From the NCBI RefSeq assembly GCF_002854065.1, contig NZ_CP024150.1: a DNA stretch of 64,000 nt; one strand, given 5' to 3'. Source of the DNA: Escherichia coli. Its GTDB lineage: Bacteria; Pseudomonadota; Gammaproteobacteria; Enterobacterales; Enterobacteriaceae. Each line of letters starts with the position of its first letter. Within the stretch, counting starts at the first letter, position 1. Shown here in pieces: positions 1-6,000 of the stretch. Position numbers: made by a program.

Positions 1-3000
1 ATCGGCGGTTTCATCGCCCACCGCCAGTACCACTGAAAGCGCCATACAGCGTTCCCCCGCCGCGCCGTAGGCCGCGCCCATAATGGCGTTTGTTGCCATC
101 TCCATGTCGGCATCCGGCATTAAAATGCAGTGGTTTTTCGCCCCACCCAGCGCCTGACAGCGTTTGCCGTGGGCGGACGCGGTCTGGTAGATGTATTCCG
201 CAATCGGCGTAGAGCCAACAAAGCTCACGGCCTGCACGCGCGGGTCGGTCAATAGCACATCAACGGATTCTTTATCCCCCTGCACCACGTTAAACACGCC
301 GTCCGGCAGGCCGGCCTCTTTCAGTAGTTTTGCCAGCGCGAGCGCCAGAGAGGGATCTTTTTCTGATGGTTTCAGCACGAAGGTATTACCGGTCGCCAGC
401 GCAATCGGGAACATCCACATCGGCACCATCGCCGGGAAGTTAAACGGCGTGATCCCGGCGCAAACGCCGAGCGGCTGCATCAGCGAGTGGCTGTCCACAC
501 CGGTGCCCACGTTGGCAGAGTGTTCACCCTTTTGCAGATGCGGGATGCCACAGGCGAACTCCACCACTTCCAGGCCACGGGTCAGCTCGCCTACCGCGTC
601 GGAGAAGACCTTACCGTGCTCTTCGCTGATAAGACGGGCCAGACGTTCCATATTCTCTTCCAGCAGCGCTTTGAAGCGGAACATCACACGCGCGCGCTTA
701 AGCGTAGAATGACGCGCCCACGCCGGAAACGCCTGCTGCGCGGCGGCAATCGCCTGCTCCGTTTCCTGTGCCGTACTCATCACCACCTGACGGATCTGCT
801 CGCCGGTGGCCGGGTTGAAGATCGCCTGAACGCGCTGGCCTGAACCGGTGACACATTCGCCGTGAATAAAATTCGCTACCGTCTCCATCCTTAACCTCTC
901 GCTGTTGATACGTGACTGTTACCTGAACACTGTGTACTGAATACTATATATGAAACAAATATTCCATTTTAAGTTGAGATAAAATAAATGATGATTATTG
1001 TGATCAAGGATGGATTTTTATGTTAACAGCCAACAACACTGACGCAGCGTGCGCTATTAAGGATTTTCAGGCGATGAAATGAGTGAAGTATCTGTTTCAT
1101 TTTTGCTGCCAGATGGATGGCCAACATTTAAAAGACGCGGTTTTGTGTTTAGAATAATAAGACTGTATTTGGGGGATAACATGACGACAGCAACCAGCCT
1201 GAACGAACTGCAGCAGCAAATCCGCGATCGCTACGATAGCCTGAGTAAGAGGCTGCAGCAGGTCTCCCGCTATGTACTGGATAATACGAACAGTGTGGCG
1301 TTTGATACGGTTGCGGTCATTGCCGAGCGTGCCGATGTGCCGCCCTCGACGCTGATCCGTTTTGCCAATGCCTTTGACTTCACCGGCTTCAACGAGATGA
1401 AACAGCTGTTTCGTATGAACCTGGTGGAGGAGACCGCCAGCTACAGCGATCGTGCGCGGCTGTTCCGCGAAATGGAGAGCGAAGCCGTGCCGGAAACGCC
1501 GCTCGATATCCTGCAGGAGTTTGCCCGCTCGAACGCGCAGGCGCTGCAGCAGCTGGCCGCCCGCGCCGAACCGGAGATGCTGGAGCGCGCCGTACAGCTT
1601 CTGGCCGCCGCGGACACCATCTACATCGCCGGACTGCGCCGCTCCTTTAGCGTCGCTGCTTATCTCACCTATGCTTTAAGCCACCTGGAGTGCCGCCCAA
1701 TTCTGCTCGACGGCATGGGCGGCATGCTGCGTGAGCAGATCAGCCGCATTAAGGCGCGCGACATTGTGGTGTCGATCAGCTTCTCGCCGTACGCGGAAGA
1801 GACGGTGATGGTCAGCGAAACCGCCGCCAGCGTCGGCGCGCGGCAGATTGTGATTACGGACAGCCAGATTAGCCCGCTGGCGACATTTAGCGATCTCTGC
1901 TTTGTGGTGAAAGAGGCGCAGGTGGATGCGTTTCGATCTCAGTCGGCAACGCTGTGCCTGGTCCAGTCGATTGTTGTAGCACTGGCATATAAATTGGGTG
2001 AAGTGGTCAACAAAAACTGGCCACCACGTTAGAGTTTTTCCAGTATCGGTTTTCCGATTCGTTTGGTGGTAACCCACCATTATATTCGTGCGGCCTGAGT
2101 GCGCTGTAATATCCAACGATATAGTCCGTTATTGCGTGGGCTGCATCGCTGAAGCTTACGTAACCTGTCACTGGCATCCATTCGTTCTTCAGACTCCGGA
2201 AGAAGCGCTCCATTGGGCTGTTATCCCAGCAGTTTCTGCGACGGCTCATACTCTGCCTGATCCGGTATCGCCACAGTAACTGCTGGAACTGCCTGCTCGT
2301 ATAATGACTGCCCTGATCGCTGTGGAACATCACCCCGACGGGTTTACCGCGAGTTTCCCATGCCATTTCCAGCGCTTTCATGGTGAGTCTGCTGTCCGGC
2401 GAGAACGACATTGCCCAGCCCACTGGCTTTCTTGCGAACAGGTCGAGAACAACGGCGAGATACGCCCAGCGTTTACCTGTCCAGATATAGGTCACATCAC
2501 CGCACCACACCTGGCTGGGCTCCGTTACGGCGAACTGTCGCTCAAGATGATTTGGGATAGCAACGTGCTCATGACCGCCACGCTTATACCGGTGAGTCGG
2601 CTGCTGGCAACTGACCAGTCCCAGCTCTTTCATGAGCCTGCCAGCAAGCCAGCGTCCCATCGGGTAGCCTCTCTGGGTTGCCATTGTGGCGATGCTTCTT
2701 GCTCCGGCCGAACCGTGGCTGATGCCATGTAGCACAAGCACCTGACTGCGTAATACGACCCGTCTGCCGTCTGGCTTTTCAGGACGGTTTTTCCAGTATT
2801 TATAGCTGCTGCGATGAACCCCGAACACATGGCAGAGAGTAACCACAGGATAACGCGCCCTGAGTTTCCCCATTATCGAGAACTGTTCAGGGAGTCTGAC
2901 ATCAAGAGCGCGGTTGTAGATTCAATTGGTCAACGCAACAGTTATGTGAAAACATGGGGTTGCGGAGGTTTTTTGAATGAGACGAACATTTACAGCAGAG

Positions 3001-6000
3001 GAAAAAGCCTCTGTTTTTGAACTATGGAAGAACGGAACAGGCTTCAGTGAAATAGCGAATATCCTGGGTTCAAAACCCGGAACGATCTTCACTATGTTAA
3101 GGGATACTGGCGGCATAAAACCCCATGAGCGTAAGCGGGCTGTAGCTCACCTGACACTGTCTGAGCGCGAGGAGATACGAGCTGGTTTGTCAGCCAAAAT
3201 GAGCATTCGTGCGATAGCTACTGCGCTGAATCGCAGTCCTTCGACGATCTCACGTGAAGTTCAGCGTAATCGGGGCAGACGCTATTACAAAGCTGTTGAT
3301 GCTAATAACCGAGCCAACAGAATGGCGAAAAGGCCAAAACCGTGCTTACTGGATCAAAATTTACCATTGCGAAAGCTTGTTCTGGAAAAGCTGGAGATGA
3401 AATGGTCTCCAGAGCAAATATCAGGATGGTTAAGGCGAACAAAACCACGTCAAAAAACGCTGCGAATATCACCTGAGACAATTTATAAAACGCTGTACTT
3501 TCGTAGCCGTGAAGCGCTACACCACCTGAATATACAGCATCTGCGACGGTCGCATAGCCTTCGCCATGGCAGGCGTCATACCCGCAAAGGCGAAAGAGGT
3601 ACGATTAACATAGTGAACGGAACACCAATTCACGAACGTTCCCGAAATATCGATAACAGACGCTCTCTGGGGCATTGGGAGGGCGATTTAGTCTCAGGTA
3701 CAAAAAACTCTCATATAGCCACACTTGTAGACCGAAAATCACGTTATACGATCATCCTTAGACTCAGGGGCAAAGATTCTGTCTCAGTAAATCAGGCTCT
3801 TACCGACAAATTCCTGAGTTTACCGTCAGAACTCAGAAAATCACTGACATGGGACAGAGGAATGGAACTGGCCAGACATCTAGAATTTACTGTCAGCACC
3901 GGCGTTAAAGTTTACTTCTGCGATCCTCAGAGTCCTTGGCAGCGGGGAACAAATGAGAACACAAATGGGCTAATTCGGCAGTACTTTCCTAAAAAGACAT
4001 GTCTTGCCCAATATACTCAACATGAACTAGATCTGGTTGCTGCTCAGCTAAACAACAGACCGAGAAAGACACTGAAGTTCAAAACACCGAAAGAGATAAT
4101 TGAAAGGGGTGTTGCATTGACAGATTGAATCTACAGTAGCCTTTTTTAATATTTCGTTTTCCATTTCAATACGTTGTAGCTTTATCTTCAGCTCACGTAT
4201 TTCGATTTGTTCAGGTGTTATCGGAGAGGCTTTTGATGTTTTACCCTGACACTCTTCAGGCAGTTGCTTGACCCATTTTATCATCGTGGAAAAACCGACA
4301 TCCATAGCCTTAGCGGCATCAGAGACGGTGTTGACGTTGCGACAGCCCGGGATGGAAACCCGCTGCCCCGAAGGGGCCGGGCAGAGACAGCGCAGCTGGC
4401 CCGGTGCGAAGCATGACAGCCCCGGTTCCCGTCAGGGAAGTCGCCCGTAGTGAAAACGGGAACGGGCAGAAAACAGAGAACGGGAGAATAAGAATGGATT
4501 ACATGCGGCTTAGTGGGAAACCTCACCAACAGGGCGGGGAGCAGTCACGAGATGGCAGACAATTATCCGGCGTGATGCCAGCCGGGAACATCAGGAGCGA
4601 AAATGCTTTTCTGTACTGCACAACGCTGTACCAGGCCGAAGCCAGGAAAGCAAAAACGGTGATCAGCACTCTGAATTCGTCACCCGTCTCCTTCCCCTTC
4701 AGCATCAACGTTATGATGATGCCGGCAACGATAATCCATGCAACGCCACTCCAGAGACGCAGTTTATCCGCCGCGACATTAATCAGGATAAAAGCAACGG
4801 CCACGATTCCTCCCCACAAAGCCGGTACATGCTGAAACGGAATAAACAACAGGTTAATACCGGTTAAAATAGTCACGGCTGCAAACATCAGAGACATACG
4901 CATAAAATTTCCTCCCCGAACACACTGACTATAAGAATCACTTCTGCTGCTCATCTCCGGGTTTATTATATTCGGGCGCATTTGCGCGCGGCAGCTGCTG
5001 ACTATTCTGCCGATGAACGTCAAGCCGTTCACGGAAATACAGGCGAAGATGTTCAGGCTGTTCCCGTTCAACAATCTCAGGCACCACGGGCTTGTTCATC
5101 CTTTCCTGCCAGGCAACGGCAGCGGCGGCTTTATCGACTGAGACCTTATCCTGATCTTCTTTTGAGAAAGAGGCGATATTCCACTTTGACATATGCATCA
5201 CCGGTCTGCTTTACAGGAAGATATCCCTGATAATACGCGCATTCCAAGGCTTCAGCGACTGACAACGGAGAGGAGAGTGCGCGGCGCCGGAGGCGCGGCG
5301 AAGTTTCTCTCCGGCAGGCGCAGCCTGCCCGGGTTTTCGTGCGGGCTGACAGGCGCCCTCCGGCCCGGACGCCTGCCATCCTGCTTACTGGCCGTATCCG
5401 TCCTGTCGTATAAACTGGCCGCAAAGGTAAACAGCGCTCTGACAGGTCATGTAGTAACATATTTCGTCGATCACCTGTTCTGTCCTTAGCGCCGACTGTC
5501 CATTCTCACGTCGGCGGGCATTAATCAGGGCTTTGTACTGTCGCAGGATCTCGCGGGTTTCCGGTGCAAGTTTCATACGTTTTCTCCTTAACCGGCGGGT
5601 ATCCCCGCCGGACATTAATCAGTTGCTGAAAACATAGCCGTCATGGAACACATAGCCGCTGCTGAACAGGTCACGCGCCCAGGCTTCAAAATCGAAATAG
5701 CTGCGCAACGGCTCCGGCACCTCATTTAACAGGCCGTTGTCCTCAACCATCTCCCGCGCATAGTCCTCCTCGCTTTCCGCCTCGCCGCGGTACGCATCAT
5801 CAAACGCGTCATAGTCACACTCGCCGGTATACTCCGCCCAGGCGATAAAAGCGGCTTCCCTGCCCTCTTCTTCGGCGCGTTTGTAAGCGGCGATAAAATC
5901 CCAGTCAATGGAGCATTCAGAGACGAACTGCGACGGAATGCCTTCCCAGTCCTGGAACATAAACTCGGCATCCCATTCATCGGCATGCAGTGCCTGACAG

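Follow-up and report, generated by a model that had tools for sequence, protein, structure and literature searches.

Nested insertion sequences at the 3' end of iolR on an Escherichia coli IncF plasmid

The iol locus and the iolR reading frame

The stretch of DNA analysed (64,000 nucleotides; hereafter the window) belongs to an E. coli IncF mosaic plasmid and is 100% identical to p2017.06.05CC_1. It opens inside iolA, the first gene of the iol operon, the remainder of which lies upstream, beyond the start of the window; the iolA locus annotated by RefSeq at 11383-12888 on the identical plasmid corresponds to window positions -617 to 888. The genes immediately upstream of the regulator gene iolR, on the opposite strand, are iolA, iolD, iolG, an ABC transporter, iolC, iolE and iolB, and iolR and the iol catabolic genes have the same divergent layout on the E. 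coli chromosome. A preliminary description of this DNA had placed the regulator beside iolA; the adjacency is correct, and the neighbour is the whole iol cluster, not iolA alone. The features of the locus are as follows.

1-888, minus strand: 5' part of iolA/mmsA, encoding CoA-acylating methylmalonate-semialdehyde dehydrogenase (as annotated by RefSeq on the identical plasmid)
889-1180: divergent iolA-iolR control region, with promoter-like hexamers (consensus matches only) at 1127-1155 on the plus strand and at 1026-997 and 972-943 on the minus strand
1181-1998, plus strand: native part of iolR (RpiR/MurR family), residues 1-272 and the first two bases of G273
1999-2032, plus strand: IS-derived end of iolR, comprising the third base of G273, E274-R283 and a TAG stop, an in-frame reading of the IS terminal inverted repeat
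1999-2914, minus strand: right-hand 916 bp of an IS911/ISEc52-like element (IRR and orfB), ISEc52 positions 335-1250, 94.2% identical to ISEc52 and ending at its terminal ...TTGACCACTTCA
2007-2873, minus strand, within the element: orfB ORF (rve, rve_3 and HTH_21 domains)
2913-2914: left copy of the GT target-site duplication
2915-4135, plus strand: complete IS30 (1221 bp), with the annotated IS30 transposase ORF at 2977-4128 (383 aa)
4136-4137: right copy of the GT target-site duplication
4136-4331, minus strand: internal orfA fragment, ISEc52 positions 141-336, 81.6% identical to ISEc52 and to K-12 IS911A
4332-4522: start of the plasmid leading-region backbone, with a hypothetical gene, pol III theta, ArdA and others next

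The iolR ORF occupies 1181-2032 on the plus strand and encodes 283 aa, with the G273 codon (GGT) at 1997-1999 and the TAG stop at 2030-2032. The right end of an IS3-family element lies at position 1999 (TGAAGTGGTCAACAAAAACTGGCCACC), exactly the point at which alignment with an intact copy of ISEc52 breaks off, and in other plasmids different flanks adjoin the same IS right end. The ORF reads through this junction, so that IS sequence now encodes the C-terminus, as first described. The earlier count of 11 IS-derived codons is amended to 10 sense codons (E274-R283, with W-P-P inside) plus the stop. The HTH_6 (PF01418, residues 10-83) and SIS (PF01380, residues 141-266) domains both score above the Pfam gathering threshold and are complete upstream of the junction.

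As judged by its genomic context, the regulator is probably IolR-like. The Salmonella enterica IolR (STM4417) also combines an RpiR-type HTH_6 with a SIS domain and adjoins the iol catabolic genes (PMC4513076), and two reports describe it as a repressor of RpiR type that acts on the inositol operon (PMC4513076; PMC5349611). The likeness is one of architecture and position, the function of the plasmid protein being assigned from context alone, and Salmonella was absent among the 80 closest iolR loci.

The 283-aa chimera is represented in RefSeq by WP_044789519.1, the final 10 residues of which are IS sequence. Six E. coli plasmid records contain the same fusion ORF with 99.9-100% identity across the junction, and pRHB13-C14_2 also carries it, with the distal IS later cut by another element. 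The identity of the fusion ORF among these plasmids reflects recent common descent and is not a demonstration of selection.

The IS911/ISEc52-like element and its IS30 insertion

The element that ends in iolR is homologous, without gaps, to ISEc52 positions 141-1250 only, and the left 140 bp are absent. Of the terminal inverted repeats typical of this family (ending 5'-TG...CA-3'), the right one survives and matches the ISEc52 repeat exactly (TGAAGTGGTCAACAAAAACTGGCCAC), whereas the left repeat is deleted; of a 3-bp target duplication such as would flank the element, GGG (1996-1998) at the right end is the visible candidate, the left flank also having been deleted. The missing left end had been recognised previously, with a boundary at 4335 that is corrected here to 4331/4332. 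Homology of the backbone to IncFIB plasmids of Citrobacter, Klebsiella and Salmonella (92.8-95% identity) begins exactly at 4332, and a 2-nt GT microhomology at 4330-4331 marks an illegitimate deletion junction between the truncated IS and an IncFIB-type leading-region backbone. Searches of the window and of 36 kb of the plasmid turned up neither the missing 140-bp left end nor a second IS30 copy.

The host element is 92% identical to ISEc52 overall (94.2% in orfB and 81.6% in the orfA fragment), and the two share the same length register, right terminal repeat, A6G site and orfA/orfB layout. No intact copy more than 93.7% identical to the host element was found, the best intact relatives being on a Cronobacter plasmid (93.7%) and a Cedecea plasmid (93.2%); the nearest intact copies are labelled ISEc52 by PGAP (92% identity). 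'IS911-like' can stand as the name of the family, and by usual ISfinder naming practice the element is presumably a separate, unnamed isoform or element.

The host element is split by IS30 with a 2-bp GT duplication, as had been noted earlier. The IS30 inverted repeats are 26 bp long and match at 23 of 26 positions (3 mismatches), its transposase includes HTH_38 and rve domains, and 1219 of its 1221 nucleotides are identical to those of K-12 IS30A. When IS30 and one GT were removed in silico, the IS911-type orfA frame was restored. In the reconstructed 1,110-bp element, orfA and orfB lie in a -1 register, orfA ending ...LNSSR*, and the A6G frameshift heptamer AAAAAAG is located at 4141-4147 on the minus strand, within the orfA fragment. 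The IS30 target, AAAAAAGGCT-AC-CGCGCTCTTG, appears by eye to be symmetric around AC at only 6 of 11 positions; a literature search for a published IS30 hot-spot consensus returned nothing usable.

This nested anatomy is a non-chance pattern. An IS30-in-IS911 nest is also an already known, classic K-12 configuration that a large proportion of E. coli genomes carry, and each type of IS30/IS911-type junction was found in more than 1,000 of the 5,426 complete genomes of this species. In the K-12 IS911A::IS30A nest (insN / insI1, CP4-6 prophage), IS30A has the same AC/GT dinucleotide as its target, 5 nt on the 3' side of the A6G heptamer, and the 2-bp duplication and an incomplete IS911 host are likewise seen (PMC9333248). 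The two nests differ in that the K-12 host is truncated on the right, with 429 bp kept after IS30, whereas the plasmid host is without its left 140 bp. Identity between the plasmid host and K-12 IS911A is 81.6% over the orfA fragment, against 94.9% over the 429 bp of orfB retained in K-12.

The nests in pMAR7 and an Enterobacter asburiae plasmid have the same site, orientation and GT duplication as the nest described here, and could point to a nest inherited whole from the form widespread in E. coli, with later recombination or gene conversion producing the differences. Around the IS30 site, host variants are identical for ~60 nt in both directions, which would permit such recombination. Block inheritance is nonetheless considered the less probable origin, though one to be taken seriously, as the host IS parts of the compared nests are 6-18% apart but the IS30 copies only 0-0.25% apart. 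Furthermore, K-12 IS30A occupies this dinucleotide too but faces the other way with respect to its host, proof that the site is hit independently, and IS30 is known for a 2-bp target duplication and for targeting hot-spot sequences (PMC9333248). Insertion of IS30 into this host element itself is the preferred reading; the frameshift window of IS911-type elements appears to be a recurrent IS30 hot spot, at which one IS may repeatedly inactivate another.

The C-terminal end of IolR

In an alignment of 19 orthologues, conservation ends exactly at G273, which is invariant, and no position beyond it is conserved. The native tails that follow are hypervariable and 3-14 residues long. Seven Enterobacter-type chromosomal orthologues of 276-277 aa share 98-99% amino acid and 91-93% nucleotide identity with the plasmid gene and end in EGK, GGEK or EGEK, while the E. 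coli chromosomal copy shares 93% amino acid identity with it. As the best species representative is 93% identical at the nucleotide level, the size of the lost tail is estimated from these relatives: at most 3-4 unconserved residues were lost, and the IS-encoded tail exceeds the native one by 6-7 residues. The E. mori native end, GG-TGAAG-GGAAATAA, has 5 nt in common with the IS end, and E274 may thus effectively be retained. A second event near the iolR end, at which unusual divergence of the last 30 nt would have hinted, was rejected, as this bin has 6-9 mismatches per 30 nt and other bins reach the same level.

The junction coincides with the end of sequence conservation, a position that would also suit an IS inserted just after the native stop, leaving the protein unchanged. 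This is extremely improbable, as every orthologue runs at least 3 codons past G273, the plasmid ORF reads 10 codons into the IS, and the closest orthologues have their stop 9-12 nt past the junction position. A native regulator ending at the same residue, the case envisaged in the preliminary description as contradicting it, was not observed among the orthologues, and native sequence has indeed been lost, although this amounts to no more than 3-4 unconserved residues.

An IS-encoded tail that inactivates or weakens IolR would leave the plasmid iol operon derepressed. The protein does end in ten foreign residues that include W-P-P, and the longer tail could affect last-helix folding, oligomerisation or stability. 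The native iolR terminator is also gone, a weak terminator-like site at 2064-2079 being the sole such site noted; with this loss, transcription from iolR may continue antisense across orfB and on into the co-oriented IS30 transposase gene. In addition, loss of IolR in Salmonella reportedly shortens the myo-inositol lag (PMC5349611), so a hypomorph could be advantageous. Against this, no conserved residue has been lost, both Pfam domains are intact, and the ORF has been kept open and is identical in related plasmids. Natural tails of 3-14 residues with unrelated sequences further indicate that the IolR end tolerates variation. Inactivation or weakening is accordingly judged unlikely, and the earlier suggestion of an inactive regulator with consequences for the adjacent catabolic gene was a weak one. 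The more specific proposal that the tail makes IolR hypomorphic or less stable, shortens the long, bistable inositol lag and was retained as a means of tuning a plasmid iol island gained by horizontal transfer in E. coli is very unlikely.

With all conserved residues and both domains still in place, the plasmid IolR is most likely a functional repressor. A PDB sequence search returned only distant RpiR/MurR structures (E-values of 2e-13 and weaker), the alignments to which end at residue 268 and say nothing about the tail. The AlphaFold2 model of the fusion protein, built from a 20-sequence alignment, had a mean pLDDT of 61.7 with values below 50 in the tail, and is too poor to serve as evidence. 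A hybrid outward promoter at the IRR/iolR junction was rejected as a candidate, as a promoter scan of both strands gave no promoter-like site across the junction.

Proposed history of the junction and the iol island

Taken together, the locus is probably a decayed mobile-element junction rather than a working device, an ordinary scar next to a regulator that most likely still works. In the proposed sequence of events, an IS911/ISEc52-family element would have landed with its right end at iolR codon 273, 9-12 nt short of the native stop. Translation would then have run on into the inverted repeat of the IS, adding ten new residues and a stop in place of the native 3-4-residue tail. Subsequent insertion of IS30, 5 nt downstream of the A6G heptamer at the recurrent hot spot, would have been the first death of the host IS. 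A later deletion would have taken the left 140 bp, and with it the left inverted repeat, promoter and 22 codons of orfA, and fused the truncated IS to the IncF leading-region backbone.

The iol block on the plasmid is an Enterobacter-type island, one edge of which is marked by the IS911/ISEc52-like scar, and the element probably helped create that edge. At the far edge of the island, an HTH fragment belongs to an unrelated transposase and is not a second copy of the IS, and no IS911-like remnants were found in searches of the regions downstream of chromosomal iolR in E. coli and Enterobacter. Known IS-made 3' fusions and IS-bounded islands on IncF plasmids resemble this case, in that an IS end gives substitute codons and a stop and a block derived from a chromosome is bordered by IS remnants; nothing mechanistically distinct was found in the plasmid case.

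As an ordinary scar, the finding matters little beyond annotation, in which the IS fragments are rightly treated as pseudogenes. The myo-inositol cargo of the plasmid is of possible ecological interest, separately from the IS scar; a literature search on plasmid-borne iol in E. coli returned nothing usable. The hosts of conjugative IncF plasmids with the Enterobacter-type myo-inositol island were E. coli from human and pig.

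The replaced 3' end of iolR

The regulator gene adjoining iolA is entered from downstream by an insertion sequence (IS) that is itself interrupted:

1181-2032 (+), iolR regulator, 283 aa (WP_044789519.1), annotated as MurR/RpiR family, divergent from iolA
1999-2914 and 4136-4331 (minus strand), host IS, an IS911/ISEc52-like IS3-family element in two parts
2915-4135, IS30, 1221 bp, with 26-bp inverted repeats (three mismatches) and a 383-aa transposase carrying HTH_38 and rve domains

By its gene context the regulator is IolR-type. The regulator/iolA layout is identical in the chromosome of E. 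coli ATCC 8739, and in S. enterica, IolR is an RpiR-like protein described as repressing the myo-inositol operon (PMC4513076; PMC5349611). An upstream ATG at 1079, which gave a 317-aa regulator in a mechanical ORF list (1079-1180 being extra), was dismissed as an artefact, as all orthologues begin at ATG 1181.

The window sequence from 1999 is TGAAGTGGTCAACAAAAACTGGCCACC. Alignment of the reconstructed element with an intact copy annotated as 'IS3-like element ISEc52' stops exactly at this base, and on other plasmids related elements show the same TGAAG preceded on the left by unrelated DNA. The host IS thus ends at 1999 inside the 3' end of the regulator gene, as the preliminary description had placed it, and, given the element's minus-strand orientation, this end is its right inverted repeat (IRR). 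G273 is encoded by GGT at 1997-1999; the IS supplies the last base of this codon, all ten codons from E274 to R283 and the TAG stop.

When the protein was aligned with 19 Enterobacterales orthologues, G273 proved invariant and none of the later columns conserved, with native tails ranging from 3 to 14 residues. Among species-representative genomes, a scan turned up seven chromosomal orthologues of Enterobacter type (98-99% amino acid and 91-93% nucleotide identity), from Lelliottia nimipressuralis strain 51, E. chuandaensis, E. sichuanensis, E. genomosp. O, E. mori, E. soli and E. cloacae. All seven proteins have 276-277 residues, with G273-EGK, -GGEK or -EGEK at the C-terminus. The insertion point of the IS thus lies 9-12 nt upstream of the native stop and not just after it, the refuting case that had been allowed for. 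Relative to these closest orthologues, 3-4 unconserved residues gave way to ten, a net gain of 6-7 residues. The native E. mori DNA reads GG-TGAAG-GGAAATAA, matching the first five IS bases, so that E274 may effectively be retained.

The C-terminus is therefore rewritten, as proposed, while the further suggestion that the regulator is inactive found little support. The Pfam domains HTH_6 (10-83) and SIS (141-266) are complete and score much as they do in the E. mori protein, and, since the residues removed are just a short, unconserved tail, loss of function through the IS tail is unlikely. The AlphaFold model of the fusion protein was of low quality (mean pLDDT 61.7), and the RpiR structures that have been solved are too remote to bear on the tail.

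The IS30 insertion site

A GT dinucleotide is duplicated on either side of IS30 (2913-2914 and 4136-4137), and in silico removal of IS30 with one GT restored the IS911-type orfA frame, which bears out the 2-bp duplication first read from the sequence. An A6G slippery heptamer, the frameshift site, lies at 4141-4147, with IS30 5 nt downstream of it. The site recurs in both orientations:

2913-2914 / 4136-4147, shared IS30 site, also at 2541-3763 of L087 and in L004 and L005 (comparison loci with IS30 inside IS911-type elements)

The Fig. 3 legend of PMC9333248 records IS911A of K-12 as interrupted by IS30A. In K-12, IS30A has entered at the same AC/GT dinucleotide as in the window (…AAAAAAGGCTAC|IS30|ACCGCGCTC…), although it points the other way with respect to the host IS. 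Junction-specific queries of 5,426 complete E. coli genomes placed the window-type junction in at least 1,216 of them and the K-12 type in at least 1,028; the IS30-in-IS911 nest is a known, recurrent configuration. In pMAR7 and an E. asburiae plasmid, IS30 occupies the same site in the orientation seen in the window, an arrangement that might also have arisen if same-orientation nests were inherited as one block and then recombined. This history is rather doubtful; compared with the window, the host IS parts of these plasmids differ by 6-18% and IS30 by 0-0.25%. The simplest reading is of repeated independent IS30 hits at one hot spot, and hot-spot targeting, with duplication of 2 bp, is known for IS30 (PMC9333248). 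The hot spot would then be a recurrent route by which IS30 disables IS911 relatives.

The truncated host IS

Homology to ISEc52 covers positions 141-1250 only; the left repeat, the promoter region and the first 22 codons of orfA, which together make up positions 1-140, are absent. This left end was not found in the window or in 36 kb of the plasmid. The left end is thus missing, as first described, with the boundary four bases left of the reported 4335, at 4331/4332. Beginning at 4332, the window matches the leading region of IncFIB-type plasmids, at 95% identity for those of Citrobacter and Klebsiella and 92.8% for one from Salmonella. Those IncFIB-type plasmids run leftwards into ssb, DUF905, parB-like and psiB, a stretch deleted in the window plasmid at the 4330-4332 joint. 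IS and backbone overlap there by GT alone, a microhomology indicating a deletion junction.

With a single end, without the orfA start and with no route to OrfAB, the host IS is predicted to be unable to transpose. A scan across the IRR/iolR junction returned no promoter-like site. The native iolR terminator has been lost; the only terminator-like hairpin, at 2064-2079, is weak, and the count of such sites does not exceed that in shuffled sequence. Transcripts of iolR may consequently run antisense through orfB toward the co-oriented IS30 gene. Taken as a whole, the nested, end-truncated IS in the 3' end of the regulator was confirmed, and as an IS scar it is ordinary and of a kind already known.

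The host IS is 92% identical to ISEc52 overall. It is mosaic, the orfB part (1999-2914, 94.2%) being closer to ISEc52 than the orfA fragment (4136-4331, 81.6%). Compared with IS911A of K-12, identity is 81.6% for the orfA fragment and 94.9% across the 429-bp portion of orfB kept by K-12. The best uninterrupted relatives among 72,556 plasmids reach 93.7% (Cronobacter) and 93.2% (Cedecea), and 92.4% is the highest value in E. coli genomes; neither collection yielded an intact copy above 93.7%. 'IS911-like' is a fair family label for what appears to be an unnamed variant.

The junction and the inositol island among plasmids

Plasmid p2017.06.05CC_1 (NZ_AP027791.1; E. coli, IncFIA/IncFII, conjugative) is 100% identical to window 1-5000, and a sister plasmid 99.1%. 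By the NZ_AP027791.1 record, window base 1 falls within iolA/mmsA, and the remaining inositol genes upstream of it are complete (iolD, iolG, ABC transporter, oxidoreductase, iolC, iolE and iolB):

NZ_AP027791.1 48279-63066 (L006, the locus from this record, 4280-19067), Enterobacter-type myo-inositol catabolic cluster, iolR to iolB, on a conjugative IncF plasmid

On its far side, the iol block is bounded by the 5' fragment of an unrelated HTH transposase, joined to truncated umuC. Downstream of the chromosomal iolR genes of E. coli and Enterobacter, no IS911-like sequence was found, which suggests that the insertion is specific to this plasmid lineage and marks one border of a captured island.

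Across 900-2100, six E. coli plasmid records, human and pig isolates included, carry the junction at 99.9-100% identity. A seventh plasmid, pRHB13-C14_2, carries the same iolR::IS junction, its IS remnant being cut at window-equivalent 2233 by another element. Within the structure, the iolR::IS joint is therefore the oldest and most stable feature; its sharing is not evidence of selection, since the plasmids are recent relatives. At position 7233 of L088 (CP055725.1), a sister plasmid that retains this joint, equivalent to window 2233, the sequence begins GAACCGCCCCGGGTTTCCTGGAGAG and resembles the end of another IS.

In a sister plasmid, the stretch matching window 1-5000 (NZ_AP027831.1 46362-53636) is ~2.3 kb longer, is in two pieces and includes the group II intron reverse transcriptase gene ltrA, which also lies inside or beside the same nested IS in several further plasmids. 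The window plasmid has two leading-region/SOS sets, one in the window at 6483-9030 (SRAP peptidase, umuD, umuC, ArdA) and one past the iol island at NZ_AP027791.1 63056-66701 (truncated umuC, umuD, psiB fragment, psiA, ArdA). It also has two relaxase types, MOBF and MOBP, and together with the doubled sets this suggests a cointegrate of two backbones.
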